The position numbers were made by a program, and so were the translations under genes. Source: an uncultured Clostridia bacterium (lineage in GTDB: Bacteria; Bacillota; Clostridia; Christensenellales; UBA1242). From it: DNA of 64,000 nucleotides. The notes under the pieces are model-generated. The model saw only the letters and a program-made list of their open reading frames with translations. It was not told where the DNA came from and did no database searches. Below are positions 8,027 to 60,780 of the stretch, in pieces; the first letter of the stretch is position 1, and the number at the start of each line of letters is the position of its first letter. The stretch lies in NCBI GenBank assembly GCA_947628205.1, contig CANQYX010000003.1, positions 665 to 64,664 of the forward strand. The letters run 5' to 3'.

Positions 8027-8112
8027 GCGATTTTATGCTATTTTTTAAAATTTTTTAAAAAAATTTTTAAAAATTTTAGCCAACAACTTAATTTTGGCTG
8101 GTTTTGGGCAAC

Positions 8113-9075: not shown

Positions 9076-9088
9076 ATAAATTTCTCCT

Positions 9089-10639: not shown

Positions 10640-10657
10640 ATTTTCTCCTTTATAAAT

Positions 10658-12425: not shown

Positions 12426-12503
12426 GTATCCCAACCAAAATTTTGTTGTAAAAAAATATAAATAATTTTCTTTTTAACAAAAATTTTTTATAATTATTAA
12501 AAA

Positions 12504-12600
12504 TTTTTAATTTTTTTTATTAATTTTTACGCATTTTTGCAATTTTTTATAATTTTTTTATAATTTTTTTATAATTTTTTGCCCACATATAAAATTTTTT
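12504..12600. repeat. Phased T-tract array (A1-3 T5-8 every 9-11 nt)
   Basis: T-runs start at 12524, 12534, 12543, 12553, 12564 and 12575, giving spacings of 10, 9, 10, 11 and 11. Units such as ATAATTTTTTT are repeated. Confidence 0.85.
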
Positions 12601-19635: not shown

Positions 19636-19640
19636 ATTAA

Positions 19641-19770
19641 CACCATATAGAGTGTGCGAGGGGCAAGCCTGATAACCACACAGCAACCTGCAATTAAGGT
19701 AAGGTGCTAATGCTTGATGGATGGTGTAATTTAAAATTTGTGCCATCCGTTGATGGCTATTTTTATTTTT
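19641..19770 (+). promoter_or_regulatory. Candidate transcription-terminating riboswitch, SAM-I clan (SAM-I/IV-like) core
   Basis: P1 CACCAU (19641-46) / AUGGUG (19721-26). P2 GUGUG (19652-56) / CACAC (19677-81). Conserved-looking strings GAGUG, GCAACC (19683-88) and AGGUGCUAA (19702-10). Terminator GCCAUC-cguu-GAUGGC (19742-57) plus a U-rich tail. The P1 3' strand GGAUGG can alternatively pair with CCAUCC as an anti-terminator. P3 is short, so the class assignment is tentative. Confidence 0.5.
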
Positions 19771-19781
19771 AGGAGGGAAAA

Positions 19782-20108
19782 ATGGAAGGGGACATTCGCG
19801 GAATTATGAATGTTTATTATGAAGATTACAACAGCGCAAACAAAGGCAATTATTCTAAACCATATTGTGTAAATTGCAAAACCTACAATTCTTCGCTAGA
19901 TTTTTTAAAATATTTAGAAGATTTGGGCTTTTTGGTTGTTGCTGGCCAGGCTCAGGGCTTCTGTGCTGTGCTTGTAAACCTTGAATTAAAGCGTTGCTCA
20001 GGCATACGATTAGCCTGCCATTACACAACGCCTGAAAAAGAATTGGATTACAACGATTTTAAACCTATTTTAGACAAATATTTAAAAAATCAAAATGTAA
20101 ATTTATAA
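19782..20108 (+). CDS. Hypothetical 108-aa protein downstream of the riboswitch candidate
   Basis: AGGAGG 6 nt upstream of the ATG. Contains CVNC and other Cys residues. No family recognised. Confidence 0.6.
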   Translation: MEGDIRGIMNVYYEDYNSANKGNYSKPYCVNCKTYNSSLDFLKYLEDLGFLVVAGQAQGFCAVLVNLELKRCSGIRLACHYTTPEKELDYNDFKPILDKYLKNQNVNL

Positions 20109-20537: not shown

Positions 20538-23480
20538 TTAATCATTAACATGATTTATCCACGCACCGTTATACACTTTTAGCGAATTTGCACCATCGCT
20601 AGCTGTTAAAATATCTGGCGTGCGGCCAATTTGAGAATTGTTTGCAAGCCATCTTGATTGCGCTGCATCAACAAAGGTTGCAGAAACCAAATTGCATCCA
20701 TTAAACGCCAACGCGCCTATATAGCGCAAGGAAGAAGGAAGAGTTATATTTTTTAATGCTGTGCGCCCATCAAAAGCTTTTGAACAAATGACACGTGTGC
20801 CATCTAATATAGTGTAAGTTTCGTAATTAAAATCAGCATTTGTTGCAATTAAATAATGCGTAGAATTATCTTTTGAGTGCAAATATAAAATTCCGTTATA
20901 TGTTTCGCTTTGATTAGATTTCCAGTTTTCATCATCTAAATAGAACTTTGTGCCAAAGAAAGCGTTGTCACCAATAAAATTAATTTTGTTGCCAACTTTA
21001 ATTGTTGCAAGGTTTGAACACCCATTAAACGCATTTGCGCCTATGCTGGTTACACTGTCTGGCAATGTTACAGAAACAAGGTTTGTATCGTCTCTAAATG
21101 TGCCGGCAGGAATTGAACTAAAGGTGTAATCCGACAAATCTAAATTGGTGTTAGGTTGTTCTGTTTTGTCTGTAATATGGAAACTAACCCCTTCTTTAAG
21201 CGGGCTGGCTTCATCGTTCATAAAATTAATTGCAAGCCACTCTTTAACCGTGCCAGTAAACTCAACTTTTTTCAACGCTGGGCAATTTTTAAACGCATCG
21301 TTGAAAACTTCTTTTATTGTATTAACTAATTTAACCTCAATTAAATTTGTGCAGTTTTCAAAAGCTGATTCTGCAATTCCAACCGTATTTTCTTTAACCG
21401 AGAAAGTTGCAACGCTTTCGTCAACTTTTAACAAATGATTAGCAAGATACAACGCGGTTGAGTTATCTACCCAATTTGATTTATCCAAAACATAATCGGT
21501 GTTTTTAAAAGCGAATGGTCCAACATAGTCAATTTCACCACAGGTTATTGAGCTAAGATTAATGCAATTGCCAAATGCGTATGTCTCCACCCTTTTAATA
21601 CTTTCGGACAAGGTTACGCTTGTTAAATTTTTGATGTCCATAAAAGCATACTCTCTGATTGTGGTAATGCTTGTGCCTTGAATAATTAAGGTTTGAACAC
21701 CGGCATCGTGAGTTGAAAAGGCATAACGGTTAATTTCTTTAACAGGTTTTCCGTTGTAGCTGCCAGAAATGATTATCTTTTTAGAATTTGAACATTGACC
21801 AAAAGCTTTACGATAAGTAGTAAGCCCATTGTATTGAACTTTTTCGCCCAATACGTAATAACTATCTGGGCTGTCAGCATCTCCAATTAAAGTATATTTT
21901 AAGCCATCTGCCTGACACTTTGAACATATATTGGACTCAACAAAATCGTGCGCTTCAATTAATTTTTCCGAGCAATCTTCGTTTTGACATTCTTTATAAC
22001 ACTTTGTATCGTCCTCGGCAACAGGTTTCCAAGCCGACCAGAAATGTTCGTTTTTATCCAGTTCAACAATTTTTTCATAATCGCAGTACGCTTCTTCGCA
22101 ATATGTTTTTATGTAACCCTTTTCCCTACAGGTTGGATCTTTACTTTCTTGTTTAAAAGTGTGTTTATATTTATCTTCTTCTCCGCAAACAGTGCAGGTT
22201 TTAAAATGATTTTCGTCATCCTTTTGCCAGTTTTCGCCCCACTTATGCCCTTCATGATTCAAAGTTTCGTAAGATTTTTGATTTTTGCAAACACGACATC
22301 TAACAATTTTGTATCCATCAACTAAGCATGTTGCATTTTGTTGTTCAATTTCAGTGTTGTCGCATGCCTCAATCAATTCATCGCCGCAACTGCTGCAAAC
22401 TTTTTTATGTTTGCCCTCTAAATAAGAATCATCCGTGCCGTCATATTGCCAATCTTGATAACTGTGGCCGAAATGTTCGGTTTCGTCTGTTTTGTAACTA
22501 AATCCACAATCTTTGCATTTATGCTCAACATAACCATCGATTGTGCACGTTGCATTTACAACATGAATTTCAAAATGACAATTGCTTTCTTCAACGTGTG
22601 TAGGGTCATTTTTGCAAACTCTACGATGACGATTGTTGGTTGGGTCGTTATCGTAATCTTCAATCGGTTCGTAAGGCGAACTTTCATAATCGTGACCGGT
22701 TGCATCGTGGAAATCGCTGTCTTGATAGTTATCGCAATGTTCGCACCATTTTCTTGTGTAACCGGAGCTTTCGCAACCAGCTTCCACAATTTGAGTGTCG
22801 CGATTAAACACGCACGCTTCCTTGTTTTCTAAATCGAGAGCCTCACATTTGGCGCATTGTTTTGCGTGGAAATCTGTGCCCTCCAACCTAACATAAACAT
22901 CATTAAATTGATGCGGTTTAATTGGGTCGATTACATCCACTTCGTGGTTGCAGGCATCGCATTTAAAACGAACATACCCTTCCGAAGTGCATGTTGCTAA
23001 TTTATGGTCAATTTCATGATAAACGCATGGCTCAATTTTAACATCAGATTCGTCGTTGCGGCAATAGCAACTATGCTGATCGTTATTGTGATTACCATCG
23101 CTATCTTCAACATGTTTCCAATCGGTATAATCATGCCCGAGCGCAGGGATTACATGGTGAGTTTCTTGTTCAGAACATCTTGTGCATATTCTATCCTCAA
23201 GGCCTTCCTCTTCACAACTGGCAGGTTTAGTAACATGTTCCTCCCACTCGTGCCCCAGCGCGTTTAAAACAATTGTAACACTATGCCCGCACGAACACTC
23301 GCCAAGTTGCGTGCCAGTTTCAGTGCAAGTTGGATTTTGCGTTATAATATAGCTATAAACATGCTCATGTTGCACAGAATTATCATCTCCGCATGCGGAC
23401 AAAACCGAGCCAACGCCCAAAATGCATGCAAAGAATAAAATTGCAACAAAAATTTTGTTAAATTTATGTAAATTTTTCAT
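20538..23480 (-). CDS. Surface lipoprotein: Cys-rich repeat modules plus C-terminal BspA-type LRR region
   Basis: Start set at ATG 23480 (GGAGG upstream). Signal and lipobox MKNLHKFNKIFVAILFFACILGVGSVLSAC. About 9-10 modules of the form TC..(E/D)G.....C..C...(10-15)...GH. The C-terminal half has IP..V..IG..AF..C LRR units. Confidence 0.8.
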   Translation of the reverse strand: MKNLHKFNKIFVAILFFACILGVGSVLSACGDDNSVQHEHVYSYIITQNPTCTETGTQLGECSCGHSVTIVLNALGHEWEEHVTKPASCEEEGLEDRICTRCSEQETHHVIPALGHDYTDWKHVEDSDGNHNNDQHSCYCRNDESDVKIEPCVYHEIDHKLATCTSEGYVRFKCDACNHEVDVIDPIKPHQFNDVYVRLEGTDFHAKQCAKCEALDLENKEACVFNRDTQIVEAGCESSGYTRKWCEHCDNYQDSDFHDATGHDYESSPYEPIEDYDNDPTNNRHRRVCKNDPTHVEESNCHFEIHVVNATCTIDGYVEHKCKDCGFSYKTDETEHFGHSYQDWQYDGTDDSYLEGKHKKVCSSCGDELIEACDNTEIEQQNATCLVDGYKIVRCRVCKNQKSYETLNHEGHKWGENWQKDDENHFKTCTVCGEEDKYKHTFKQESKDPTCREKGYIKTYCEEAYCDYEKIVELDKNEHFWSAWKPVAEDDTKCYKECQNEDCSEKLIEAHDFVESNICSKCQADGLKYTLIGDADSPDSYYVLGEKVQYNGLTTYRKAFGQCSNSKKIIISGSYNGKPVKEINRYAFSTHDAGVQTLIIQGTSITTIREYAFMDIKNLTSVTLSESIKRVETYAFGNCINLSSITCGEIDYVGPFAFKNTDYVLDKSNWVDNSTALYLANHLLKVDESVATFSVKENTVGIAESAFENCTNLIEVKLVNTIKEVFNDAFKNCPALKKVEFTGTVKEWLAINFMNDEASPLKEGVSFHITDKTEQPNTNLDLSDYTFSSIPAGTFRDDTNLVSVTLPDSVTSIGANAFNGCSNLATIKVGNKINFIGDNAFFGTKFYLDDENWKSNQSETYNGILYLHSKDNSTHYLIATNADFNYETYTILDGTRVICSKAFDGRTALKNITLPSSLRYIGALAFNGCNLVSATFVDAAQSRWLANNSQIGRTPDILTASDGANSLKVYNGAWINHVND

Positions 23481-23505
23481 TTTGCCTCCACAATTTCTTG
23501 AACTG

Positions 23506-23534
23506 ATTTTAACAAACATTAGTTTATAAGTCAA
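23506..23534 (-). promoter_or_regulatory. Promoter of the lipoprotein gene
   Basis: TTGACT (23534-29), 17 nt, TAAAAT (23511-06). Confidence 0.6.
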
Positions 23535-23650: not shown

Positions 23651-24106
23651 ATGGAAAACGATTTTAAAATTTTGTCTAATCTCTCTCCTGCTGCTTATGC
23701 CAATATAAAAGGAAATGACGACTATCCCGAAATTAATGGTGTTGTGCAATTTTTTAATTTAGGCAATGGGATTGTTGTGTATGCCGATGTTGAAAATTTG
23801 CCAAAAACCGAAACTAACATTTTTGCCTTCCACATTCATGAGGGTGAAAGTTGCGAAGACAATTTAACCCTCACTGGCGGACATTTTAATCCAACAAATC
23901 AGCCGCACCCAAACCATGCAGGAGATATGCCGCCCTTATTTTCAAATAACGGCAGCGCTTGGTTTGCGTTTTACACTGAACGCTTTAATTTAGACGAAGT
24001 TATTGGAAAAACGGTTATAATTCATGATTCACCAGACGATTTTACAAGTCAACCCTCGGGCAACAGTGGCGAAAAAATTGCATGCGGAATTATAAAAAAA
24101 CTATAA
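23651..24106 (+). CDS. sodC: Cu/Zn superoxide dismutase family protein without a signal peptide
   Basis: 151 aa. FHIHEGESC, GGHFNP, HPNHAGDMPPL and VIIHDSPDD match the SodC metal-ligand regions. Confidence 0.8.
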   Translation: MENDFKILSNLSPAAYANIKGNDDYPEINGVVQFFNLGNGIVVYADVENLPKTETNIFAFHIHEGESCEDNLTLTGGHFNPTNQPHPNHAGDMPPLFSNNGSAWFAFYTERFNLDEVIGKTVIIHDSPDDFTSQPSGNSGEKIACGIIKKL

Positions 24107-24182: not shown

Positions 24183-24207
24183 AAAAAAATGGCAGTGCCA
24201 TTTTTTT
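24183..24207. terminator. Bidirectional terminator between sodC and leuS
   Basis: AAAAAAATGGC-agt-GCCATTTTTTT. Confidence 0.75.
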
Positions 24208-26614
24208 AAACAACAATATTGAAAATTCGGTTTGGAATATATACAATTTTTTTGTAGCCATTTGTTAAATATGCTTTAACTTCGTTTAGGGCTTTTTCTT
24301 TAATTTCATTTTCGCTGGCAGATTTGCTAACTGTGATTTTTCCACGCAATTTGCCATTAACCTGAATAGGAATTTCGACTTCGTCAACCACCAGTTTGCT
24401 TTCGTCGAACTTTGGCCAACTTTCATAAGCAATTGTGTTGTTGTGGCCGAGTTGTTGCCATAATTCTTCTGTTATAAATGGGCAAATTGGGTTTAACAAT
24501 TTTAAAAACCCTTCTGCGTATTTGCGTGGGAAATTTTGTTCTTTAGCAAGGGCGTTTATAAATATCATCATTTGCGAAATTGCAGTGTTGAAATTTAGAG
24601 TTTCAAAATCCTCGCTAACTTTTTTAACAGTTTGATTATAAATAAAATCTAACTCTTTATTTTCGCCATAGGTGATGGTTTTTTCTTGATAAATTCTATA
24701 AATTCTATCCAAAAATTTGCGTGCGCCGGCAACGCCATTATCGTCCCATGGTTTGCTCATTTCAAGCGGCCCCATAAACATTTCGTAAAGGCGCAAAGTG
24801 TCCGCCCCATATTGCTTAACAATGGTGTTTGGGTCAACCACAAATTGCGGATAACGTTTGCCCATTTTTATGCCATTTGCGCCCAAAATCATGCCTTGAT
24901 GCACAAGTTTTTTAAATGGCTCTTTAACAGGGCTTAGGCCTTTATCGTAAAGATAATTTGTCCACATTCTGCTATACAACAAATGGCTAACCGCGTGTTC
25001 TGGACCGCCCACATAAAGGTCAACAGGCATCCAATGTTTAAGAAGTTTTTGATCGGCAAATTCACTGTCATTTTGCGGGTCGATATACCTCATAAAATAC
25101 CAACTTGAGCCAGCCGTTCCTGGCATAGTATTTGTTTCTCTTTTGGCAGGTTTGCCATCAACTTTAACATTAACCCAATCGGTGGCGCGAGCAAGTGGAC
25201 TGCTGCCATCTTTTGCTGGCTTATAGTCATTAAGTTCGGGCAAAACAAGTGGCAATTCGCTGTCATCAAGCGCTTTGGTTTTTCCATTTTCAAAATGCAC
25301 AATCGGAATAGGCTCGCCCCAATAGCGCTGGCGCGCAAAAGTCCATTCGCGCAATTTAAAGTTGGTTTGCTTTTTTGCAACGCCCATTTTAACAAGTTTA
25401 TCCGTTATGGCAGTTTTTGCTTGTTCAACTGTCAGCCCGTTAAACTCCTCGCTATTAACAAGTTTGCAACCCTTGCCCAAATAATCTTGCTTTTCAAACG
25501 CGCATTCGGTTACATTGCCGCCCGAAATTACTTCTATCATGGGTATTTTGTGGCTAACCGCATATTCAAAATCGCGTTGGTCGTGGCTTGGAACTGCCAT
25601 AACCGCGCCCGTGCCATAACTAGCAAGCACAAAATCGCCCAAATAAACGGGCACGCGCTTGCCATTAACCGGGTTGATTGCATAAATGCCATCTAACTTA
25701 CAGCCCGATTTGGATTTGTTAAGTTGAGTGCGCTCTAACTCGCTTTTCTTTGCCACTTCGGCGCGATATTTTTCAACTTCATCCCAATTATTAATGCGCG
25801 GTTTAAGTTCGTCCACCAATTTGTTTTCGGGCGCAAGCACCATGAAAGTTATGCCATAAATTGTTTCAATGCAAGTGGTGAAAATTGAAAATTTGCCACC
25901 GCCAACAATTTTAAATTGCACCTCCACACCCTCAGATTTGCCAATCCAATTGCGCTGCATTGCTTTGGTGCTTTCTGGCCAATCAATTTCGTCTAGGCCG
26001 GCAAGCAATTTTTCGGCATAAGCAGGAGTATCAATAACCCACTGTTTCATGTTCTTTTTAACAACCGGATAACCACCGCGCTCACTTTTGCCATCTATAA
26101 CTTCATCATTTGCAAGCACGCAGCCCAACTCTTCGCACCAGTTCACAGGCACTTCTTTTAATTGAGCAAGGCCATCTAAATAAAGTTGTTTAAAAATCCA
26201 TTGTGTCCATTTATAAAAACTTGGGTCGCTAGTTTTAATTGCCCTATCCCAATCGAAAGAAAAGCCCAAATTTTTAAGTTGGTCAATAAAATGTTTTGTG
26301 TTTTCTTCAGTAAAAATTACAGGGTTATTGCCCGTGTCTATCGCATATTGTTCGGCAGGCAAGCCAAACGAATCAAACCCCATAGGGTGCAAAACATTAT
26401 AGCCCTGCATGCGCTTCATCCTGCTTACAATATCGGTTGCAGTGTACCCCTCTGGGTGGCCAACATGCAGCCCCGCGCCAGATGGATATGGGAACATATC
26501 CAGCGCATAAAATTTTGGCTTGGAAAAATCCCACACATCGGTTTTAAAAGTTTTGTGTTCGTCCCAATATTTTTTCCATTTTTCTTCAATTTCAATATGA
26601 TTAAATTCGCCCAT
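24206..26614 (-). CDS. leuS: Leucyl-tRNA synthetase
   Basis: 802 aa. Class I HIGH-type motif (GLHVGHPEGY), a KMSKS-like KMGKR, and a CP1 editing region. Confidence 0.97.
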   Translation of the reverse strand: MGEFNHIEIEEKWKKYWDEHKTFKTDVWDFSKPKFYALDMFPYPSGAGLHVGHPEGYTATDIVSRMKRMQGYNVLHPMGFDSFGLPAEQYAIDTGNNPVIFTEENTKHFIDQLKNLGFSFDWDRAIKTSDPSFYKWTQWIFKQLYLDGLAQLKEVPVNWCEELGCVLANDEVIDGKSERGGYPVVKKNMKQWVIDTPAYAEKLLAGLDEIDWPESTKAMQRNWIGKSEGVEVQFKIVGGGKFSIFTTCIETIYGITFMVLAPENKLVDELKPRINNWDEVEKYRAEVAKKSELERTQLNKSKSGCKLDGIYAINPVNGKRVPVYLGDFVLASYGTGAVMAVPSHDQRDFEYAVSHKIPMIEVISGGNVTECAFEKQDYLGKGCKLVNSEEFNGLTVEQAKTAITDKLVKMGVAKKQTNFKLREWTFARQRYWGEPIPIVHFENGKTKALDDSELPLVLPELNDYKPAKDGSSPLARATDWVNVKVDGKPAKRETNTMPGTAGSSWYFMRYIDPQNDSEFADQKLLKHWMPVDLYVGGPEHAVSHLLYSRMWTNYLYDKGLSPVKEPFKKLVHQGMILGANGIKMGKRYPQFVVDPNTIVKQYGADTLRLYEMFMGPLEMSKPWDDNGVAGARKFLDRIYRIYQEKTITYGENKELDFIYNQTVKKVSEDFETLNFNTAISQMMIFINALAKEQNFPRKYAEGFLKLLNPICPFITEELWQQLGHNNTIAYESWPKFDESKLVVDEVEIPIQVNGKLRGKITVSKSASENEIKEKALNEVKAYLTNGYKKIVYIPNRIFNIVV

Positions 26615-26719: not shown

Positions 26720-26748
26720 TTGACAATATTTCTGCGTTTTGTTATAAT
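26720..26748 (+). promoter_or_regulatory. Consensus promoter of the acyltransferase gene; -10 ends 6 nt before ATG (leaderless-type)
   Basis: TTGACA (26720-25), 17 nt, TGtTATAAT (-10 at 26743-48), GCTTTT, ATG at 26755. No Shine-Dalgarno. Confidence 0.7.
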
Positions 26749-26754: not shown

Positions 26755-27996
26755 ATGGAAAACAAACAAACACGAAGTTCTAATATTGAATTATTAAGAA
26801 TTTTTGCCATGCTACTTGTTGTTATGTCACATTGGGGTTGGGCTTTCCTTGACGTGACATTCACTAATAGTTTCAACTATTATTTTTATCGCCTTTTTAG
26901 AGCGTTTGGTCAACTTGGCGTGATTTTATTTATTTTAATTTCTAGCTATTTTTTATCTAAAAGCAAATTTAAAATTTCGTCAATGTTAAAACTAATTTTG
27001 CAAACCATCCTCTCAATTCTCTTTCTGTTTTTAACCTTTTACATATTAGGTAAATTCGGCGTTGTGTGCCAGGGGGGGGGGTACTATAATTTTTCGGAAT
27101 TTATAACAAATTTATTGATTTTTAATTCGGAATATTGGTTTATAAACATTTATTTAGTTATCTATTTAATTTTCCCATTCCTTAACCTAATAATTAACAA
27201 CTGCTCAAAAAAACAATTTATTTGGTTGATATTAATTCTTTTTATCTGTTTTTCTCTTTTACCAACTTTAACGAAAAATCAAATTACAGAAAATTCCATT
27301 GTCAACAATTTTGGTTGGTACATACTAATATATTTTTTGGGTGCATATTTAAGAAGATTCCCTGATGATTTCAAAATTAACAAACTGCTATTTTTTGGTT
27401 TAATCGGTTGCATTGTTATCTTTATTAACGATATTGATTTTTATCAAACAAGGTCAAACCCATGCATGATTTTAATGGCTATAATTATTTTCTTACTATT
27501 TAGCAAATTAAAAATGAAAAATTTTAGGTTTATCAACGTGGTTGCATCGTCAACTTTTGGTGTGTATTTATTGCACGAAAATCGTTATACACGATTTTTC
27601 GTTTGGAAGGACATTTTTAAATTGCACACCATATCAAACAAATGGTTCTTCCCGTTATATTCAATTTTTTCAGTTGTTGTGGTTTTTGCTATTTGCAGCA
27701 TTATAAGTTTGATTATGCAATATGTGTTAATTAATCCGTTAATAAAACTTTTAAACAAGCCATTATCTAAAATTCCCGTTGCCAAAATTTTTCCAGAAAC
27801 AAAAATTGAAAAAACTAATGATAAGCCAACAGCTATAATGCCTATAAGCATATTAATTTTAATTTCAGTTTTCTTATCCAATGTTATTTATCAATTTACA
27901 AATAAATTAACACCTTTAATATATTTTATTTTTATAGGAGCAGCTTTTTGCTTGCTAATATTAATAATAAAAAAACTATTAAAAAAAAGAGTGTAA
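26755..27996 (+). CDS. Acyltransferase family 3 (O-acyl/acetyltransferase) integral membrane protein
   Basis: 413 aa, about 10 TM segments. N-terminal SSNIELLRIFAMLLVVMSHW is typical of acyltransferase_3. Confidence 0.8.
   Translation: MENKQTRSSNIELLRIFAMLLVVMSHWGWAFLDVTFTNSFNYYFYRLFRAFGQLGVILFILISSYFLSKSKFKISSMLKLILQTILSILFLFLTFYILGKFGVVCQGGGYYNFSEFITNLLIFNSEYWFINIYLVIYLIFPFLNLIINNCSKKQFIWLILILFICFSLLPTLTKNQITENSIVNNFGWYILIYFLGAYLRRFPDDFKINKLLFFGLIGCIVIFINDIDFYQTRSNPCMILMAIIIFLLFSKLKMKNFRFINVVASSTFGVYLLHENRYTRFFVWKDIFKLHTISNKWFFPLYSIFSVVVVFAICSIISLIMQYVLINPLIKLLNKPLSKIPVAKIFPETKIEKTNDKPTAIMPISILILISVFLSNVIYQFTNKLTPLIYFIFIGAAFCLLILIIKKLLKKRV
27072..27081 (+). repeat. Homopolymeric G10 tract inside the acyltransferase CDS
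   Basis: Read directly: c aggggggggg g tac. Decodes in frame as CAG GGG GGG GGG TAC (Q-G-G-G-Y, codons 106-110). Confidence 0.98.
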
Positions 27997-32733: not shown

Positions 32734-35700
32734 TTATAATGCTTTTACATTTTTGTTTGCAACATAAATCATATAATCTTTATATCTTTTTGCTGCTTCG
32801 GTTATTTTTGAAGAATATTTCGTGTGAAGTGACATATATTTTTTTGCTGGTGGATTTTTTAGCACCGCTTTTAAAACATTTTCATTATACTCATAAAGTT
32901 CAACAAGTTTTTTTGCACGCTCTTCCTCACCGCCTATAAGATCATCATCCCCATAATATGCGTCCGTAATATCGTTTAGTTCTTTCATTGCCTTGCAAAC
33001 TTCTATTATTATTTTTTCTACATCTAATTTAGTTAACCCAACAAGTGACCTTCTTTCTGTTGTGCTAATGCTGCGTTTTGATACTGTAGCATCGTGTTCA
33101 ACGCTTGCCGCAGTTTCTGGCGCAACTTCGCGTTCTGCCTCTGCCACAACCTCTGGTGCAACTTCTGCCGTTTCCTCTGCACTGCCTATGCGCATTGCGC
33201 TAATTGCTTCAATTGCACTTGCAGCGGACACACTTGTTTCTGCCGATGTAGACACTTTGCCTTTGCTGCGCAATTTAGAGAATAATCCACTCGCTTTAAA
33301 TGCCTTGTTTCGTTTTCTCCATTCGCGCCTAGAAACTTTTTTGGTTTTATCTTTAGTTGCCTCGCGGACATATTCAAAATCTCGTTTATGTTTATCCACA
33401 ACAATTTCGGTGGCTTTAGCATACGCTTCAATTTGCTTTTTCTGCGCTTTTTCGGCTGCTGTTAAAGCTGAATCTGGTTTATCAAAAACGCTTTCGCCAA
33501 AATATTTAACCATCATAAACCCTTTGGCTTGGTCAATTCTGTCCCTAAGGGTTTGTTGCTCTTTATCCGGATGATTGTCCGCACCCGTTATGCGATAGTT
33601 TTTGCGAATATCTTGAAATTCGTTGTTTTTAACCGCAAGCAAATCCACCTTTTCTTGATGTTGCCTAATTAAATCTTTATCTTTTGGATTTTTATCCATT
33701 TTTTCTTTAAGCACAGAAATTTCTTTGCTTAAATTTTCAATTTCGGTTTTGCGCTCGCCAAGCAATTTAACATATTGCGAATATTCATGCGCGTTGGCTT
33801 GGGTGACCTTGCCTTTGCCGTCCACCATGCTAAATTGCGCGCCCGATTTAGATGCAGAAAGCAAATCAATTTTAGTTTCCTGCAGCGCAATTTCGGCAAG
33901 CAAAAGTTGTTTGCGCTCTTCAATTTTTTGCGCTTTTGCCTCTTCCGTTAAGCCAACCAAACTTTTTTCAAAATCAGGCTGTTTATCTTTAAAGCGATTA
34001 AATATTTCTGCTAGTTCGTCAAATGTTTCGTCCTTAATTTTTTCTGCCTGATATTCGTTTTTGTTTTTATATTTATAATTCTTTTTGGATTCTACTCTGC
34101 GTTTTTTTATTGCGTGATAAATAGGAACACCAATTCCCCACCCAATAACTCCGGCTGCCAAGCCAACAAGTAGGAAAGGCGAAACCAAGGACACAAGCGC
34201 GCCACCTGCACTAAAAGTGAAACCAAGCGCATAAGCCGCGCCCTCACCCCATTTGGAGAAACTGTTTTTAACGCCTTTTTTATAGTCATATTTCGCGCCG
34301 CCAGTAAGTTTTTCCCCGTCAAAAGTAAAGCCACCATCCGGCATATTTAAAAGTTCTTTTAAATTGTTAACCGCACTGTCCTGCATCGGGATAATGTCCG
34401 AAAGCATATAGCGGTGGTTTTCCAAATATTCCTCAAATTCGCCGTCCGCCCTTGGGTTTTCTTGAATTAAAAGTTCGCCGCCCAAATCGTACTGCTTTGA
34501 CTTGTATTTTTCTAAAAATTCGGCGTAAATTTGTTTAATTCGTTCGGCTAGTTGTTGTTTTGTTTCATCGTCCAGCGTGCCGTCAAGCAATTTAACGCTG
34601 TCTTTGCGAATGTTCAAAACTTCGCATTTTTCCGCTCTCGCACCTTTGGTTGAAGTTGTTTGAACAATGTCACTATTATTAATTCCGCCATGTGATTTAA
34701 CAACTTTTTGTGCATCGCCTTTTTTAAATTCAATATTTTCACTGCCAACTGCCAACTTGATAATGTCACTAGACGCGGAATCTATTCTAGATTTTTCAAT
34801 TATATAACTTCGTTCGGAAACTGTTCCTTTGCTTAGCGTTACCACATAAGCATCATAATTTGTTGTGGCTGGGTCATCTACATAATTGTAGCATTTAGGC
34901 TGAACAACATCTGCCTCTTTAACATATTTGCCGTTTTTCAAGCGCAACATTGCGGTGGATTGTGGCTTGGATGGGTCGGTTTCGTCCTTACAAACATCGG
35001 CATCCGAAAACGTTTCGTAATATTCTTTTCTGGTTTCAAAAGGCACAGTTTCGTCCGCTGTTAGTGGCTCTAACTCATAAGGCGTTCTGCCATCCTCACC
35101 TAACGCCCATATTTTTTTGCCAACGCAAGCAGATAATTTTGTTGACGTAAGTCGTTCGCTGCTAGGGTTACCGCTCCCGTCATCCAACCTCAAATGCTCG
35201 ATTGGGCAAGGTGTGTGTGCTCTATCTCCTTTAAGCCTAACAAAAACATATCTGCCATCTTCTGCCTCATATTTATCTGGGGTTCTTATAATTTTTTCAA
35301 GCATTTCAGCAGTGAAAGTGTCTAATGGCCTATATTCGCCATCATCGTCTAAAACATAAAAATTATCGTGCCCCGCACCAAGTTTAGCCAATAATTTTGA
35401 AATGCTGCCAACTTCTACATATTCGCCAAGCACAGCATGGCCATCTTCCATTTTTAATTCATATATTCTATCCGCAGAAACAAATTTTTCTTTTTTTTCG
35501 GATTCATAATTTACTGTAACGGGAATTTTAGTTTTTACAGTTATATCGTAAATGGTTGCATTAAGCATTGCTGGGTCTTTTACCGAACTGCTGCCCTTTG
35601 CCGAACTAAAAACAACAAAGCTGGTTTGCTTATATTGCTCATAAACCTGCCTTGATTTAAGTTTTACCGAACGCCCAGATTTCGTAAATTCGGTTTTAGG

Positions 35701-35859
35701 GTTTTTTAAATCTTTTTCAGCTGGAATACCGCTTGAACCTGTCCTACCCTTAACGCGCAAACTAGAAATTGGAACAAAACTGCCATCTTCCAACTCAACA
35801 TAATTATGTTCACTAAAACTAGCCGGACGATATTTGGTTATGCCTTCAACATCTGCCAT
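32734..35859 (-). CDS. Hypothetical 1041-aa protein with a central TM hairpin and a long C-terminal coiled-coil or charged region
   Basis: Start set at ATG 35859 behind AAGAGGTGG. Hydrophobic pair AAYALGFTFSAGGALVSLVSPFLLVGLAAGVIGWGIGVPIY at mid-protein. K/E-rich heptad-like C-terminal half. Its stop lies 18 nt before the glyQS ATG. Confidence 0.75.
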   Translation of the reverse strand: MADVEGITKYRPASFSEHNYVELEDGSFVPISSLRVKGRTGSSGIPAEKDLKNPKTEFTKSGRSVKLKSRQVYEQYKQTSFVVFSSAKGSSSVKDPAMLNATIYDITVKTKIPVTVNYESEKKEKFVSADRIYELKMEDGHAVLGEYVEVGSISKLLAKLGAGHDNFYVLDDDGEYRPLDTFTAEMLEKIIRTPDKYEAEDGRYVFVRLKGDRAHTPCPIEHLRLDDGSGNPSSERLTSTKLSACVGKKIWALGEDGRTPYELEPLTADETVPFETRKEYYETFSDADVCKDETDPSKPQSTAMLRLKNGKYVKEADVVQPKCYNYVDDPATTNYDAYVVTLSKGTVSERSYIIEKSRIDSASSDIIKLAVGSENIEFKKGDAQKVVKSHGGINNSDIVQTTSTKGARAEKCEVLNIRKDSVKLLDGTLDDETKQQLAERIKQIYAEFLEKYKSKQYDLGGELLIQENPRADGEFEEYLENHRYMLSDIIPMQDSAVNNLKELLNMPDGGFTFDGEKLTGGAKYDYKKGVKNSFSKWGEGAAYALGFTFSAGGALVSLVSPFLLVGLAAGVIGWGIGVPIYHAIKKRRVESKKNYKYKNKNEYQAEKIKDETFDELAEIFNRFKDKQPDFEKSLVGLTEEAKAQKIEERKQLLLAEIALQETKIDLLSASKSGAQFSMVDGKGKVTQANAHEYSQYVKLLGERKTEIENLSKEISVLKEKMDKNPKDKDLIRQHQEKVDLLAVKNNEFQDIRKNYRITGADNHPDKEQQTLRDRIDQAKGFMMVKYFGESVFDKPDSALTAAEKAQKKQIEAYAKATEIVVDKHKRDFEYVREATKDKTKKVSRREWRKRNKAFKASGLFSKLRSKGKVSTSAETSVSAASAIEAISAMRIGSAEETAEVAPEVVAEAEREVAPETAASVEHDATVSKRSISTTERRSLVGLTKLDVEKIIIEVCKAMKELNDITDAYYGDDDLIGGEEERAKKLVELYEYNENVLKAVLKNPPAKKYMSLHTKYSSKITEAAKRYKDYMIYVANKNVKAL

Positions 35860-35877
35860 TTTCCACCTCTTAAAATT

Positions 35878-35906
35878 ATTATACCACATAAAAAACTAAA
35901 AAGCAA
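35878..35906 (-). promoter_or_regulatory. Promoter of the 1041-aa ORF / glyQS unit
   Basis: TTGCTT (35906-01), 17 nt, TGgTATAAT (-10 at 35883-78). Confidence 0.6.
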
Positions 35907-36131: not shown

Positions 36132-38495
36132 CTAAGGTGCTTTTATGTTAATTTGGTCGTACAAATGATATCTGTTTAAAATGTGCAAATAATTTAACTT
36201 TATAAGTTGATTAGTGGCTTCCGATTTAAATAAATTAATTAAATAAGTGTCGGAAAGGACTTTGCCCGTTCTGTTATAGAAAGTTTTTAAATCTAAGGTA
36301 TAGCAATCTTCAGAGAACATTCCGCCAGTGTTAGAATAATAAACCACCAAATCTTTACCCGGTTGCCCAGTTAAAACTTCTTGTGCCAAGCCAGTTTGAC
36401 TATCTATTGCATATACATAGTCCGCCGGGCGGAAAACTGAGTGACCTAAATAATAATTTTCGTTGAAAGGTATCCCTAACAAATCAAGTAAGGTTGGAAT
36501 AATATCGTAGGCCGAGCAAAATCTATCGTTAATGTTATAATCTTTGCCGGTTGTTTTAGCAAGTTGTTTAAGGCCCGGGCTGGACATAATCATCGGGATA
36601 GAATTTAGTTCTATGCTTAAAGTGTCGTCTTGATTAAACCCTTTAACATGGTTTGATAGTGAGCCATAATAACAATAGTGGTCGGAATAAAGAACAAGGG
36701 TTGTTTTATCGTAAATATTTTTTTCTTTCAACTCGTTTATAATAACGCCAATTGCTTCGTCAAGCCCCATTGCACCGCACTCATAATACACCAATTGTTC
36801 GGTTATGCTGTTTTCTTCAAATTTATCCGTATTGGCGTTGTAGGTGCCATAATTTTTTAAAATATTATAATAAAATTCGCTATATTTTTCTTGTTCGGAT
36901 TCAATATCATCCCAATCTGATTTACGTTTCCAAACATAATTGTTATAGGCACTTTTCTTGTCCTCTAACAACTGACAATTGTCCTTTCCATATTTTACAT
37001 AGTCATAATAACGCAAAGCATCGCCATCATTTAAATTATCCTCCGGCGTGTAAGCTCCGTGAGAGGACACATTTAAGTAAAATGTGAAGAAAGGATTTTC
37101 GGTTTCTGGCACAATATAATTTAAAGCGTTGCGTGCAAATTCGGCTTCTGGCGCCCAATTGTTCCACTCTAAATTTGCCCCTTTATAAATTTGGTTTCCG
37201 TTTTCATCCACCAAACTATCTTTAAACACAACCTTGTCGAACCCTAAATTGCCGTGTGTTTCACTTCTACTATAAAATTTGCCCAAATTTGAATGAACAA
37301 AAGTTGTTTGATAGCCCTGCGCTTTCAACATGTTTGGCAAAGTGTAGCCAAACGCGTTCAAGCTTTTATCATAGCCATCGCCAGCAAAAGAGTTTAATGC
37401 TTCTCCAACCGGATAATGCCCTATAAACCCATACCCTTCGCTTATATTGGTTTTAGATTTGGCAAAGAAATTTTTAAATATGGTTGCATCATTTTGCGTG
37501 TTAGAGTTGTTTGTATCGGTTAGATAGTCATCCCCATAAATTATTGAATAAATGTTAGGCGTTAGCTCGTACGAGAGGTTGTTTAAAACCCTTTCGCGGT
37601 CGTATTGGCTTACGCCATTTTCTTCCGTTTTAATGTTGCCATTGCTAAACGCCAACCACTCCATAGATTCCATCATAAGCACAATAACATTGTTGCGCTC
37701 GGTGCCATTAGCTCCTTCGTATTTATCCACGCCAAACATTTCTCGTTTATTGCCCATTTCGTCAATTTCGTTATAAATGTTGCCATTTTTAAAATAATTT
37801 AAAGTTGCCTTTTTATGCGCTTCGTTAATTGAACCAAAGCTGTTAAAAATTAAATTTAACATATATCCATACGAGCCAAACTTAGTGTAACTTGTAGATT
37901 TTAAAAAGCTGGTGTTCATTAAAAAGGCATCGCTTTCGGTGTAATTGGCATCGGTTAAATCGCCCATCACATTTATATAACTTCGCATGTGAGTATAATA
38001 CCCTATAGATAAAAATTGAATGCTTAACAACAAAATAATGTTAAAAATTGAAAAATGTTGTTTAATTTTTATTTTAGCTTTTTTGCACACTTTTAGCATT
38101 ACAAAGCCAACAATGGAAATGGACAAAAAAACTGCAATAAGCTGAAAAATAATTTTAAAATAAACGAAATTTGTTGTTATTGCTGCGGCGGCCTCTCTAA
38201 CCAAATTTAGCATATCAAACGAAAAAAGATCGCCATAAATTGTATATAATGTGTAATTTATATATATTAGCACCACCTGAATAAGCAACAAAATTGTATA
38301 AACGATATATTGTGCGGTAAAATTTGGAATGCAAAATACAATTAAACCCAAAATTAAAATTATGCTTAAATCTAGCAAAAAATATTCAGGCACAACCCCA
38401 AAATGAAGCACTTTAAAGGCAATAAATTCCAAAATTAAAGCGCCCACCACAAAATATAGTATCATTAACAACTTGTTCACTAAGGACTTAATCAT
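36132..38495 (-). CDS. LTA synthase (LtaS) / sulfatase-family membrane protein
   Basis: About five N-terminal TM segments followed by an extracytoplasmic sulfatase-like domain (NVIVLMMESMEW...). Start moved to ATG 38495, because the ATG at 38504 overlaps the -10 hexamer. Confidence 0.8.
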   Translation of the reverse strand: MIKSLVNKLLMILYFVVGALILEFIAFKVLHFGVVPEYFLLDLSIILILGLIVFCIPNFTAQYIVYTILLLIQVVLIYINYTLYTIYGDLFSFDMLNLVREAAAAITTNFVYFKIIFQLIAVFLSISIVGFVMLKVCKKAKIKIKQHFSIFNIILLLSIQFLSIGYYTHMRSYINVMGDLTDANYTESDAFLMNTSFLKSTSYTKFGSYGYMLNLIFNSFGSINEAHKKATLNYFKNGNIYNEIDEMGNKREMFGVDKYEGANGTERNNVIVLMMESMEWLAFSNGNIKTEENGVSQYDRERVLNNLSYELTPNIYSIIYGDDYLTDTNNSNTQNDATIFKNFFAKSKTNISEGYGFIGHYPVGEALNSFAGDGYDKSLNAFGYTLPNMLKAQGYQTTFVHSNLGKFYSRSETHGNLGFDKVVFKDSLVDENGNQIYKGANLEWNNWAPEAEFARNALNYIVPETENPFFTFYLNVSSHGAYTPEDNLNDGDALRYYDYVKYGKDNCQLLEDKKSAYNNYVWKRKSDWDDIESEQEKYSEFYYNILKNYGTYNANTDKFEENSITEQLVYYECGAMGLDEAIGVIINELKEKNIYDKTTLVLYSDHYCYYGSLSNHVKGFNQDDTLSIELNSIPMIMSSPGLKQLAKTTGKDYNINDRFCSAYDIIPTLLDLLGIPFNENYYLGHSVFRPADYVYAIDSQTGLAQEVLTGQPGKDLVVYYSNTGGMFSEDCYTLDLKTFYNRTGKVLSDTYLINLFKSEATNQLIKLNYLHILNRYHLYDQINIKAP

Positions 38496-38502
38496 TGCTT
38501 GC

Positions 38503-38531
38503 ATTATATATCATAACTAAAAAAATGTCAA
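38503..38531 (-). promoter_or_regulatory. Consensus promoter of the LtaS-family gene; -10 ends 7 nt before ATG (leaderless-type)
   Basis: TTGACA (38531-26), 17 nt, TATAAT (38508-03), GCAAGCA, ATG at 38495. Confidence 0.65.
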
Positions 38532-38815: not shown

Positions 38816-38841
38816 AAAAAACTGCTTAATGCAGTTTTTTT
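38814..38841. terminator. Bidirectional terminator
   Basis: AAAAAAAACTGC-ttaat-GCAGTTTTTTT between convergent genes. Confidence 0.75.
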
Positions 38842-41020
38842 AACGTTTTCTTTTGCGAATTCGAGTGTTTTTTTCCAGTTCTTTTTGGCTGGCCTCCATT
38901 TTAGCATTTTCTTCGGCAATTTGATTGTCTATTTCTTGCAAATAGCTGTCAATATCACCAATGTCTTTATCGTCCGTTATGGTTACCACCGATACATTTT
39001 TTGCCTTGCCAGATTGATCTTCTGGTTTAGCTTTGTCTTCCTGAGCTGAATCGTTGTCTTGAATAATTATAATTTTTCTTGGCCTACCCCTGCCGCGTTT
39101 TGGTTTGTTTAGTTCCTCTTCTGTCTTTTCCTTCTTTGGGCGGCCTACCGGTCGCTTAGGTTTGTCTGACTCCGTTTTAACCTTACGTGGGCGCCCCCTT
39201 TTGCCCACTTTTTTAGGTTTGCTTTCTGCCTCTTTTTTGGTGGAGTTTGTTTCTTCTAATTTTTCGGTTTCGTCAATTTTAGTTTCTTCAACCTGCTTAT
39301 CTTCTTTTTCGGCGGCGTGGCGGTTATCCTCGCCAATATAAGAACTTATTTTATTAATAATTTCTTGGTTGTCCACAACATTGTAGGCACTGTTTTCGTA
39401 GGTTGTGGTTTCAGGCATTTCCGTATTTTCAGGCAACTGACTGTCGGCTGCCGAATATTCTGAATAAGTTAAATCGTTGTTGCTAGAAGTGTTATAGTTA
39501 TAAGTTGGAGTGTTGTAGTCATCCACAGAAGAGAGATTAGTTTCGGCTGAATAAGATGTTTCTTCGCCCGCATTTGAGGCATATGGTGTTTCTGGCTGAC
39601 TTGGCGCAGGGTTTTGCTGAATTTCCTCGTACTCCTGTATTGGCTGAGCTGTTTTGTTATCTATAAGGTTTTTATTAAGTGAAGTTAAACTTGCAATTTG
39701 TGCTTTTAACTCGCCAATTTCATCTTTTTGGCGTTCGTTTTCGTTATTTGTGCGCTCTTTAACAACGCGCTCAGCATCGGCATAAACCTTTTGGCTATAA
39801 CTATCAAACTCGCTCATCATTCCACGCTCTAGCGCGGTGCGAGCTTGTTTTAATTGCTCGTTAACTTCATCCAACGCTTCTTGCAAGGTTTTTAACATCT
39901 GATTGTGTCGCTCGCTAGCGGTGTCATAATCTCTTTCCAAATTGCGCTGCCTATCCAACTCTTGTTGCTGTTGCTTTTTTAAATAGTTAGCCTCAATGGA
40001 AGAAGAGGCATCGTTAAGTTGTGCTTTAAAGTTATCGAACGTTTCTTTACTAACCTGCATTTCGCGCTGATATTCTTTAGTAATTTCGCGGAAATTGAGT
40101 TCTTCTTGCGTTATTTCGCTGTTAATTTGCTCGGTATCCTGCAAAAATTTGTTACGTTCCGCAATATAGTTCTCCGCTTCTTGCATGGCGCGTTCAAGCA
40201 CTAAAGATTTGGCAACGCCCGCTTCGTCAAAATTGAATTTTTCGTGTTCAACATTTTTCAATCTTGCACGCTCTAACTCGCGTTTTTCCTCATCTGCACG
40301 CCTTTGCAAATATGTATAAAGAACAGGAATACCCTTTTTAATTTCGTTTTTATCAAAAAGAAGTTCATAATCCACATATTCTGGGATGGTTGCCGCTGCT
40401 CTATCAATGTTCAATTCAAAATACTGGTAATTTTGGTTAAGGTCACTAACAATTGCATTGTGCCTAACATCAAAGAAAATTGTTACAAACAAATCAATAA
40501 TTAAAAGCAACACTGGGCATAGCAAGGAGCTTTGCAAAATGGCTGCAAGATTGTCGCCAACCGAATAATAGACATTTAAAATTAAACTGAAAAGTGCAAG
40601 AATAAAACAAATATAGTTTAAAATTTTTACATCTCGCTTATATGTGCTGTTTTTAATTGGGCTGGAAACACAAATTTCAAACGACATATATTCGCTTGCG
40701 CTTTTATCCCTATAAAGCACGAATTGTTGCCACTGTTTGCGAAGTTGTTTAGGAACCTTGCTAGATTTCATTTTGTTGTTAAACTCCAACAAATTTTCCG
40801 CATTTATTTCTGGCTCGCGCATAAAATAATTGTTAAACATATCAATTGCGCGAATAAGTTTTGCTTCATAAGAATTGGCGGTGGAAACTAGCACAATAAA
40901 GAATGCCAAAAGAAATAATGATAACGAAACCACCATAATAGAATTATAATTTAAATAGTTATTAAGTGAACCAAAAAACTTGTCCACAATATTAAAACCA
41001 TTATCAAAAATTGTTAACAT
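38840..41020 (-). CDS. Hypothetical 726-aa membrane protein with coiled-coil, an acidic S/T/N/Y-rich linker and three AT-hook (RGRP) motifs
   Basis: Three N-terminal TM segments. E/K/Q-rich heptad region. KRGRPRK, RPVGRPKK and GRGRPRK are encoded within about 39075-39210. Basic tail RIRKRKR. AGGGG Shine-Dalgarno. Confidence 0.75.
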   Translation of the reverse strand: MLTIFDNGFNIVDKFFGSLNNYLNYNSIMVVSLSLFLLAFFIVLVSTANSYEAKLIRAIDMFNNYFMREPEINAENLLEFNNKMKSSKVPKQLRKQWQQFVLYRDKSASEYMSFEICVSSPIKNSTYKRDVKILNYICFILALFSLILNVYYSVGDNLAAILQSSLLCPVLLLIIDLFVTIFFDVRHNAIVSDLNQNYQYFELNIDRAAATIPEYVDYELLFDKNEIKKGIPVLYTYLQRRADEEKRELERARLKNVEHEKFNFDEAGVAKSLVLERAMQEAENYIAERNKFLQDTEQINSEITQEELNFREITKEYQREMQVSKETFDNFKAQLNDASSSIEANYLKKQQQQELDRQRNLERDYDTASERHNQMLKTLQEALDEVNEQLKQARTALERGMMSEFDSYSQKVYADAERVVKERTNNENERQKDEIGELKAQIASLTSLNKNLIDNKTAQPIQEYEEIQQNPAPSQPETPYASNAGEETSYSAETNLSSVDDYNTPTYNYNTSSNNDLTYSEYSAADSQLPENTEMPETTTYENSAYNVVDNQEIINKISSYIGEDNRHAAEKEDKQVEETKIDETEKLEETNSTKKEAESKPKKVGKRGRPRKVKTESDKPKRPVGRPKKEKTEEELNKPKRGRGRPRKIIIIQDNDSAQEDKAKPEDQSGKAKNVSVVTITDDKDIGDIDSYLQEIDNQIAEENAKMEASQKELEKNTRIRKRKR

Positions 41021-41136
41021 AAATACCCCTAAAATTAATTTTTAATTAATTTTTCAATATTATTATAACACAATAAATAATTAAATACTAATATTTTTTA
41101 ATATTTTTTTAAAATTTTTTAACATTTTTTAAATTT

Positions 41137-41164
41137 ATAAAAAACACCTTAAAATAAGGGTGTT
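41137..41164 (-). terminator. Terminator after alr
   Basis: The minus strand reads AACACC-cttattttaa-GGTGTT followed by a T-run. Confidence 0.55.
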
Positions 41165-41215
41165 TTGTTATTTTAAGGCAATTTTTTATTATTTTATTAA
41201 AAATTTTTATTAATT

Positions 41216-42229
41216 TTAAATAATAATTGTTTTTGCGCGCATAAAACTGAACTTGGTGCCAACCTCATAACATGAAGAAGAAATATATTTTGCATATTTT
41301 TTTAAATTATTTTTTTCGTTTAAAATTTCTATTTCATCACCCTCTTTAAGCCGAGTTTTAGAGATGTCTAGCATAAAGCAATCCATACAGATGTTTAGCA
41401 CCCGACAAGGTGCGTTGTTTATTTTTAATTTTAACCCAAGATATTTCATATCAAACCCGTCCGCATAGCCAACAGGCAAAACGGCAATTTTTACTGGCTT
41501 TTTTGCCACAAAGCGATAGTCGTAACCAACCAGGTCACCTTTTTTAACATTATTTATTTTAACAATTTTGGTTTTTATTTTTAACACGCTTTTAAATTTG
41601 CCTGCCCCGTTATAAAGGTTGTAACCAATGCGAACCATGTCTAAGCTGTGGTTAAACTTTTCGTTAACAAAGCTGTTGTCCGCATGCACAATTGGGTTAA
41701 AGCCAAATTGCTTTGTTATGTTAACAAATTTTTTAAATGTTTTGAATTGCTTTTCAACAAATTGGTCAACCGTTGCAAAATGAGTAAAAACCCCCTCTAA
41801 AAACAGCAAACTTTTTGAAATTTTTTTTAATGCCATTTGATACTCTTTTGTGGAACTAAACCCATATCTGTTCATCCCTGAGTTTATTTTTAAATGAATT
41901 TTAAACGGCAAATTTAAACTAATTAAATAGTTAATGTCTTTTAAACTTTGGCAGGTGTAAGAAAAGGAGTTGTCAAGCTTGCCAAATTCCAGCGGGCCGA
42001 CAATTAAAATTGGATTTTTACAAATTTTTCTAACCGCTTTTGCCTCCATAACGCAGGCAACGCCAAAAAAATTGGCAAAAGGAGAAATAATTTTTACAAC
42101 TTCTTTTAACCCCACCCCATAAGCATTTGCTTTAACCATTGCACAAATTAACGAATTAGGATTTTTTTGTTTTATAAGTTTTATATTGTTAATTAAAGCG
42201 TGGCTGTTTATTATTTTTGTATTAAACAC
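41216..42229 (-). CDS. alr: Alanine racemase (short form, 337 aa)
   Basis: PLP-lysine motif MVKANAYGVG, VHADNS, and a C-terminal beta domain. GTG start 14 nt after the queH stop, with no Shine-Dalgarno. Confidence 0.8.
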   Translation of the reverse strand: MFNTKIINSHALINNIKLIKQKNPNSLICAMVKANAYGVGLKEVVKIISPFANFFGVACVMEAKAVRKICKNPILIVGPLEFGKLDNSFSYTCQSLKDINYLISLNLPFKIHLKINSGMNRYGFSSTKEYQMALKKISKSLLFLEGVFTHFATVDQFVEKQFKTFKKFVNITKQFGFNPIVHADNSFVNEKFNHSLDMVRIGYNLYNGAGKFKSVLKIKTKIVKINNVKKGDLVGYDYRFVAKKPVKIAVLPVGYADGFDMKYLGLKLKINNAPCRVLNICMDCFMLDISKTRLKEGDEIEILNEKNNLKKYAKYISSSCYEVGTKFSFMRAKTIII

Positions 42230-42835: not shown

Positions 42836-42863
42836 ATTTTATCATAAATTTTAAATTTGTCAA
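42836..42863 (-). promoter_or_regulatory. queH promoter; -10 ends 7 nt before ATG (leaderless-type); -35 overlaps the stop codon of the giant gene
   Basis: TTGACA (42863-58), 16 nt, TGaTAAAAT (-10 at 42841-36), AAATTTT, ATG at 42828. The TGA of the 3702-codon ORF is at 42862-42860. Confidence 0.6.
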
Positions 42864-60638: not shown

Positions 60639-60780
60639 AAGGCCTCCAAACCAATTGTTGCCACAAATCCTGAGTTTAAACATAAATTTAATAAAATGTA
60701 AAAATTAAGTAAAAATTTTTAAAAATTATAATTTTTTTAGCAATTTTTATAGTTTTTTATTAATTTTTTTAATATTTTTA

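Follow-up and report, generated by a model that had tools for sequence, protein, structure and literature searches.

Can a single homopolymer inside a coding sequence decide whether a bacterium modifies its surface? This question is raised by a stretch of 64,000 nucleotides (nt) from an uncultured Clostridia bacterium (positions 665 to 64,664 of contig CANQYX010000003.1, assembly GCA_947628205.1; the whole stretch is called the window hereafter), in which ten consecutive G residues lie in frame within the gene of a membrane acyltransferase. A preliminary description of the same DNA had proposed that the run acts as a translational ON/OFF switch. That interpretation is the best supported of those considered here: the tract is probably a functional slippage switch, that is, a simple-sequence contingency locus, and it stands as a well-supported candidate at which no switching has been observed. 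Three elements of the window are needed to follow the argument:

26755-27996, plus strand: gene of an Acyl_transf_3 (acyltransferase-3, AT3) membrane acyltransferase, 413 amino acids (aa) in the ON frame (Pfam PF01757, E = 1.6e-30).
27072-27081, plus strand: G10 homopolymer, formed by the last base of codon 106 and codons 107-109 (Gly-Gly-Gly); candidate site of switching by slipped-strand mispairing.
26720-26748, plus strand: acyltransferase promoter, with TTGACA at 26720-26725, a 17-nt spacer and a TG-extended TATAAT at 26743-26748.

The tract reads GGGGGGGGGG at positions 27072-27081, within the 413-aa open reading frame (ORF) 26755-27996 of the plus strand. Codon 106 begins at 27070 and codons 106-110 are CAG GGG GGG GGG TAC, in exact agreement with the coordinates and frame first described. 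The run is more than chance. In a window with a G+C content of 34.8%, only about 0.0007-0.0015 G10 runs are expected under a base-composition or first-order (dinucleotide) model, and the G/C runs of at least 6 nt comprise a single run of 6, no run of 7-9, and then the G10 together with a C11. GGG accounts for 14% of the 995 glycine codons of 27 window genes. Within the acyltransferase gene the only GGG codons are the three of the tract, the other 11 glycine codons being GGT, GGC or GGA, as had also been noted before, and none of the 18 codons in the six other Gly-Gly-Gly tripeptides of the window is GGG. The tenth G belongs to the sole CAG among the nine glutamine codons of the gene (window genes use CAA 455 times versus CAG 117). 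Computed translation demonstrated that a G9 allele encodes a 116-aa product and a G11 allele a 111-aa product, both retaining only the first three membrane helices, so that the truncation predicted for a change of one G takes effect after about 110 residues. In contrast, G7 and G13 keep the reading frame. In-frame changes of 3 nt should therefore be tolerated, whereas changes of 1 nt should be null.

The G10 tract is not the only long G/C run of the window. A second one precedes the gene of a surface protein on the opposite strand:

8010-8020, minus strand: second tract, G11 (C11 on the plus strand), filling a promoter spacer right after the -35 hexamer.
7996-8026, minus strand: promoter-like site, with TTGACA at 8026-8021, a 19-nt spacer (G11 followed by caacgtgc) and TGc-TAACAT, the hexamer at 8001-7996.
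5951-7906, minus strand: BspA-type leucine-rich-repeat (LRR) surface protein gene, 651 aa (Pfam LRR_5, E = 4.8e-69).

This G11 promoter tract lies approximately 90 nt upstream of the BspA-type gene, which has a strong Shine-Dalgarno sequence (aaggag) before its ATG. The promoter-like site was read directly from the sequence; a promoter scan that accepts spacers of 16-18 nt does not call it, consistent with a spacer made too long by the G11. Repeats of 69-144 bp at 6286-6908 of the BspA gene correspond to the LRR units at the DNA level and are a possible site of recombinational size variation.

Long G/C runs were then counted in the relatives of the organism, using 543 kb around leuS from 46 close relatives and 394 kb from 34 more distant ones. 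The numbers of runs of each length, and the long tracts of the close relatives, are as follows:

46 close relatives (length:number): 5:113, 6:10, 7:0, 8:3, 9:0, 10:1, 11:4.
34 more distant relatives (length:number): 5:83, 6:10, 7:3, 8:0, 9:0, 10:0, 11:0.
L030: TTGACG-c-G10-aatttgg-TATACT, upstream of the gene of a GLUG / Listeria-Bacteroides-repeat protein of 1111 aa.
L017 and L019: TTGACA-gaga-C11, upstream of a pair of orthologues sharing 68% protein identity.
L018: TTGACA-c-G8, in a 17-nt spacer.
L006: G11 directly adjoining the start codon (ATG) of a gene whose product has a signal peptide.
L014: G11 that spans codons 9-12 of the gene of a secreted protein and leaves it out of frame (OFF).

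The distribution of run lengths is bimodal in the window and in the close relatives, and the 394 kb of the more distant relatives contain no run of 8 nt or longer. All seven G/C tracts of at least 10 nt, the G10 of the window included, are placed where their length can control an accessory gene. In the promoter spacers, the tracts start 0-4 nt after TTGAC(A/G) (G11 of the window, C11 of L017 and L019, G10 of L030), and the genes downstream of the tracts encode mostly surface proteins, of the BspA LRR and GLUG / Listeria-Bacteroides-repeat types. The earlier suggestion that this lineage makes use of poly-G, based on the tract at 8010-8020 before the BspA gene, is thus borne out by relatives that share the design, a frameshifted OFF allele among them. 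A broader proposal, for which the arguments appear evenly balanced, is that family UBA1242 (Candidatus Onthoplasma and its relatives) runs a lineage-wide set of phase-variable genes controlled by poly-G/C, a set that would have evolved in a commensal Clostridia lineage independently of those of Campylobacter, Neisseria and Mycoplasma. The proposed set consists of accessory surface genes, including the acyltransferase, with tracts of 10-11 nt after the -35 hexamer or in the coding region.

Several of these loci deserve a remark of their own. The C11 tracts of L017 (3966-3976) and L019 (4859-4869) lie in the promoter spacer of genes of 440 and 446 aa with a weak DUF3173 match; the spacer would be 20 nt long if TATACT is the -10 box and 15 nt if it is TATGGT (L017) or TATGAT (L019). 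In L014, the gene at 8716-10837 is split by the G11, and G10 or G13 restores an ORF of at least 700 aa that has a signal anchor at its N-terminus; a gene caller would assign a wrong start to this split secreted-protein gene. The G8 of L018 (7636-7643) was considered as a frameshift site and rejected: the two ATP-binding cassette transporter ORFs around it are in the same frame with a stop between them, and the G8 is therefore intergenic.

What would be switched is an enzyme of the acyltransferase-3 family. The Pfam PF01757 match (106.7 bits against a cut-off of 31, E = 1.6e-30) spans residues 10-317 of the protein on positions 3-324 of the 326 of the profile, and a match to a phage O-acetyltransferase family was found in PHROG (E = 8.6e-13); NCBIfam gave no match for the acyltransferase. 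In an alignment of 28 sequences (the window protein and 27 homologues), R15 and H26 occur in every sequence and H274 is almost invariant. R15 and H26 are separated by ten residues and fit R-X10-H in the first membrane helix, the conserved Arg-His motif of the AT3 family. The family assignment of the preliminary description therefore holds. Its count of roughly ten transmembrane segments holds as to the membrane protein and not as to the number of helices: a hydropathy scan and an AlphaFold model (predicted local distance difference test (pLDDT) score 80.5, predicted template modelling (pTM) score 0.80, all-helical) together predict about 12, that is, about ten core helices and two low-confidence ones at the C-terminus. 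A sequence-profile search against solved structures retrieved no PDB match, and the best Foldseek matches were to human HGSNAT, a transmembrane acetyltransferase, and were weak (E = 0.28, probability 0.85, template modelling score 0.35-0.39). The Gly-Gly-Gly encoded by the tract sits in a loop between helices 74-100 and 113-120 that is modelled as unstructured (pLDDT of the block about 61). This loop is not conserved, the homologues being unrelated in sequence there and mostly 8 residues shorter, and by the positive-inside rule it is predicted to lie outside the cell.

The gene appears to be transcribed strongly and without a leader. Its promoter matches the sigma-70 consensus at 12 of 12 positions and has the TG extension, the sole 12/12 match that the promoter scan found in the region. 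The TATAAT ends at 26748, 6 nt 5′ of the ATG at 26755, and no Shine-Dalgarno sequence was found upstream of this ATG, whereas many other window genes carry one. Given the distance between the -10 box and the ATG, the mRNA is probably leaderless, in line with the leaderless start first proposed. The same arrangement is found at queH (42828), dus (62485) and a ribonuclease III domain gene (12390), where the -10 box lies 6-7 nt before the start and no Shine-Dalgarno sequence is present. Because of this shared geometry, leaderless mRNAs seem ordinary in this organism.

Further clues came from homologous acyltransferases. A total of 120 homologues were screened for glycine or proline runs and the DNA of the candidates was examined, which yielded the following tracts:

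L092, 2188-2196: C9 in the gene of P0002 (the nearest homologue, 34%), codons 9-12, within an N-terminal extension that is unique; in frame.
L094, 4497-4507: G11 in the gene of P0054, codons 2-5; the frame of the upstream ATG needs G10, likely OFF.
L095, 3523-3531: G9 in the gene of P0068, codons 3-6; in frame.
L096, 5022-5029: C8 in the gene of P0120, codons 8-10; in frame.
L096, 7939-8541: second AT3 gene in the cluster of P0120, with a mid-gene G7 at 8484-8490; truncated, 200 aa.

These tracts of 7-11 nt occur in unrelated metagenome contigs, mostly at the 5′ end of the gene. In the second AT3 gene of L096, G6 or G9 restores a product of 316-317 aa; this gene and that of P0054, whose tract is one G longer than its upstream ATG frame requires, both appear to be OFF. 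Further, the genes of P0003, P0054 and P0120 reside in polysaccharide clusters together with Wzx flippases, glycosyltransferases and sugar-nucleotide enzymes that include Rml enzymes. These cluster-borne homologues are 28-34% identical to the window protein, and their surroundings support a role of the AT3 subfamily on a surface glycan, a context that holds for the homologues and not specifically for the window gene.

Taken together, these observations suggest how the locus could work. Slipped-strand mispairing during replication would add or remove a G in the G10, shifting the gene between the 413-aa frame (G10, G7 or G13) and truncated products of 111-116 aa. With transcription strong and constitutive and the mRNA leaderless, the tract would be the only visible control point and hence the main control of the gene. 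With ON and OFF frames generated by slippage, the population would be a mix of cells with and without O-acylation of a cell-envelope glycan. As the lineage has G/C tracts of 10-11 nt at surface genes, the acyltransferase would belong to a small group of surface genes subject to phase variation in these gut Clostridia with reduced genomes. In this scheme we infer the mutation rate and reversibility of the tract, the glycan substrate and the selective agent, which may be phage, host antibody or a partner cell.

The history of the gene bears on how the tract is to be judged. LeuRS, encoded immediately upstream (24206-26614), is 67-86% identical to the LeuRS of gut metagenome genomes labelled uncultured Clostridia, Christensenella or Candidatus Onthoplasma; two of these, L025 and L026, are Onthoplasma genomes from a published study (PMC12306168). 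The Onthoplasma group corresponds to the Christensenellales family UBA1242, with genomes mostly below 1 Mb and a suspected partner-dependent lifestyle (PMC12306168), and the host organism is, on this sequence similarity, a relative of Candidatus Onthoplasma. About 23 related species share the order GlyRS, L9, (hypothetical genes), DUF1540, leuS, and in none of them does the syntenic slot hold the acyltransferase gene. Among 185,579 species genomes the protein has no relative, and its nearest match among 5.8 billion proteins is only 34% identical. The empty slot and the lack of close relatives elsewhere therefore identify the gene as an accessory insertion specific to the species, which carries its own promoter and lies between leuS and the DUF1540 gene. 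A prophage or mobile-element origin was also considered and rejected, as no integrase or phage genes are nearby.

Several observations weigh against the existence of a switch and they are best considered together. The length variation that the preliminary description had set as the test of its proposal was not found. The G10 is identical in three other metagenome assemblies (L001-L003), so that all four intact assemblies read G10 and none shows a length variant; since these assemblies are 99.6-100% identical over the locus, have about 3x coverage and belong to one set of European Nucleotide Archive accession numbers, this uniformity is a weak test of variation. The truncated products of G8, G9, G11 and G12 alleles were absent in an exact look-up among 15 billion proteins, and two scans of Joint Genome Institute metagenomes with gapped flank patterns for both tracts returned no variant alleles. 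Orthologues cannot provide the comparison of tract lengths, because the gene has no close relative, and the homology search gave no high-identity fragments either; nor is the acyltransferase gene flanked by glycan genes. Searches for the locus with the DUF1540 and 620-aa proteins led to the same few contigs plus one more (L088), which ends inside the G10 tract after six G; the exact LeuRS and BspA proteins, as queries for the same purpose, were not on record. At the G11 promoter tract, recovery based on RecR gave three contigs from other samples, two of which end inside the tract (L089 after eight G and L090 after four), and the one that spans it reads G11, the same as the window. It is unlikely that contigs break at exactly these 10-11 nt by chance. 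The breaks could reflect length heterogeneity, but they can also be explained by Illumina quality loss or poly-G read trimming and low coverage. Finally, the tracts of L017 and L019 are equally long despite the 68% protein identity of the genes behind them, and the shared C11 shows selection for the tract and provides no evidence of variability.

The uniform G10 of the four assemblies, the missing OFF products, the recent species-specific insertion of the gene and the identical C11 of L017 and L019 would all suit a tract that is real but effectively stable, encoding a flexible Gly-Gly-Gly loop and switching too rarely to matter, with its poly-G spelling derived from a horizontally acquired gene or from local mutation bias. 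We regard such stability as unlikely, because the run-length gap at 7-9 nt followed by a mode at 10-11 nt (the gap is empty in the window and near-empty in the 543 kb of the close relatives, where it holds three runs of 8) is hard to obtain without selection, the run is built from rare codons and OFF-frame alleles occur at tract-bearing loci of a relative as well as in homologous genes. Moreover, to our knowledge G/C runs of at least 9 nt have been hypermutable in every bacterium measured (Campylobacter, Neisseria, Helicobacter), and the G10 exceeds the length of a hypermutable repeat, a G/C run of about 8 or more. Slippage might instead occur at the RNA level, with RNA polymerase producing mixed transcripts from a fixed DNA length, and transcriptional slippage on long homopolymers is indeed known in bacteria with reduced genomes. 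The genomes of this lineage fall in that class (below 1 Mb; PMC12306168). The documented cases, however, concern runs of A or T and not of G; both shifted frames stop after 2-7 codons and would therefore give no alternative product; and promoter spacers hold most tracts of the lineage, at which nothing but the length of the DNA can matter. This explanation is thus very improbable. An artefact of sequencing or assembly, such as the poly-G calls of two-colour Illumina chemistry, would account for contigs from low-coverage SPAdes-type assemblies ending in poly-G at both tracts. Yet the run lies within the gene, keeps its frame exactly and is bordered at either end by coding sequence matching the family, spurious poly-G arises at read ends and not within a consensus, and the same G10 in three other assemblies therefore leaves almost no room for an artefact. 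A slippage switch acting on the DNA consequently remains our favoured explanation of the G10. It would lose ground if many strains carried an interrupted tract (e.g. GGTGGAGGG) with an unchanged ecology.

The rest of the window adds to the picture of the organism. An LtaS-like sulfatase-domain protein (36132-38504), alanine racemase (41216-42229), yabP and yabQ (54169-54806) and a Wzx/MurJ-like flippase (60781-62301) are encoded, and because of these genes the organism probably has a cell wall, possibly with lipoteichoic acid, as well as sporulation genes. The presence of sporulation genes in UBA1242 has been remarked on before (PMC12306168). A Cu/Zn superoxide dismutase gene (23651-24106, plus strand), in a gut anaerobe with a reduced genome, adjoins a second BspA-type LRR gene (20538-23534). 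Several long ORFs have no Pfam match: one of 3702 aa at 42860-53968 on the minus strand, which has a Shine-Dalgarno sequence, and others of 1051 aa (32734-35889), 726 aa (38840-41020) and 614 aa (7-1851). An S-adenosylmethionine (SAM) riboswitch at 19640-19727 on the plus strand (47.5 bits, just over the gathering score) is followed by an ORF of 108 aa (19782-20108) without a family match. Arrays of A/T tracts with a period of 10-11 bp (8040-8077, 12480-12580, 41089-41219, 60710-60822 and 63434-63574) are intergenic, lie upstream of promoters and resemble curved-DNA or UP-element-like sequence.

If the tract switches, it would be the first sign of stochastic surface variation in gut Clostridia with ultra-small genomes; no literature linking UBA1242, TANB77 or Onthoplasma to phase variation was found. 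Metagenomes are the only source of knowledge on bacteria of the UBA1242 type, which are believed to rely on partners; variation of their surface would bear on how they evade phage, host antibody or partner recognition. Should the lineage-wide set be real, then, together with the tracts of the homologues, it would imply that homopolymer-switched O-acylation of glycans is common among uncultured gut Firmicutes. There is also a consequence for genome catalogues, in which contigs break at such tracts and the genes look like pseudogenes or receive wrong starts (L014, L094, L096). The mechanism itself is a textbook one and brings no new principle; the value of the finding resides in the lineage and in a list of candidates that can be tested.

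Known systems place both tracts of the window in context. Homopolymers in promoter spacers control porA (poly-G) and opc (poly-C) of Neisseria meningitidis and vlp (poly-A) of Mycoplasma hyorhinis. The tracts at 8010-8020 of the window and in L017, L019, L030 and L018 resemble them in lying between the -35 and -10 boxes with a spacer of 17-20 nt; the comparison concerns the companion tract, with its putative promoter, and not the G10 of the acyltransferase. For the latter, the intragenic poly-G loci of Campylobacter jejuni and N. meningitidis, located in capsule, lipooligosaccharide (LOS) and surface-protein genes, are a natural parallel (PMC8437040, PMC5380846, PMC5084427). There, as here, G tracts (theirs of about 8-11) occur in the ORFs of enzymes that modify the surface, gain or loss of 1 nt truncates the product, several loci are present per small genome and run lengths are bimodal. 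They differ in that the tract lies near the 5′ end, whereas it is at codon 107 here, and in that these are cultured Gram-negative pathogens whose switching has been measured, in contrast to an uncultured UBA1242 Clostridia in which no variant was observed. The preliminary description had named Haemophilus as a third poly-G precedent next to Campylobacter and Neisseria; these two are apt, but the Haemophilus examples use tetranucleotide repeats (PMC10505976). In Haemophilus influenzae, oafA is responsible for phase-variable O-acetylation of LOS, and its ON state alters antibody recognition (PMC10505976, PMC6479036). The repeat of oafA, a tetranucleotide (GCAA/AGCA), lies at the 5′ end of a gene with a Gram-negative host and a known substrate; the likeness is that slipped-strand mispairing within the ORF turns a membrane O-acetyltransferase acting on a surface glycan ON and OFF, as is proposed here. 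The wciZ gene of Streptococcus pneumoniae encodes the capsule O-acetyltransferase behind the switch between serotypes 15B and 15C (PMC5028725). Its repeat is a TA dinucleotide within the capsule locus, in contrast to a homopolymer in a stand-alone insertion between housekeeping genes. WciZ is, we presume, itself a member of PF01757. With the candidate described here it shares a Gram-positive host and a mid-gene repeat (near nt 413 in wciZ) that shifts the frame and turns O-acetylation off.

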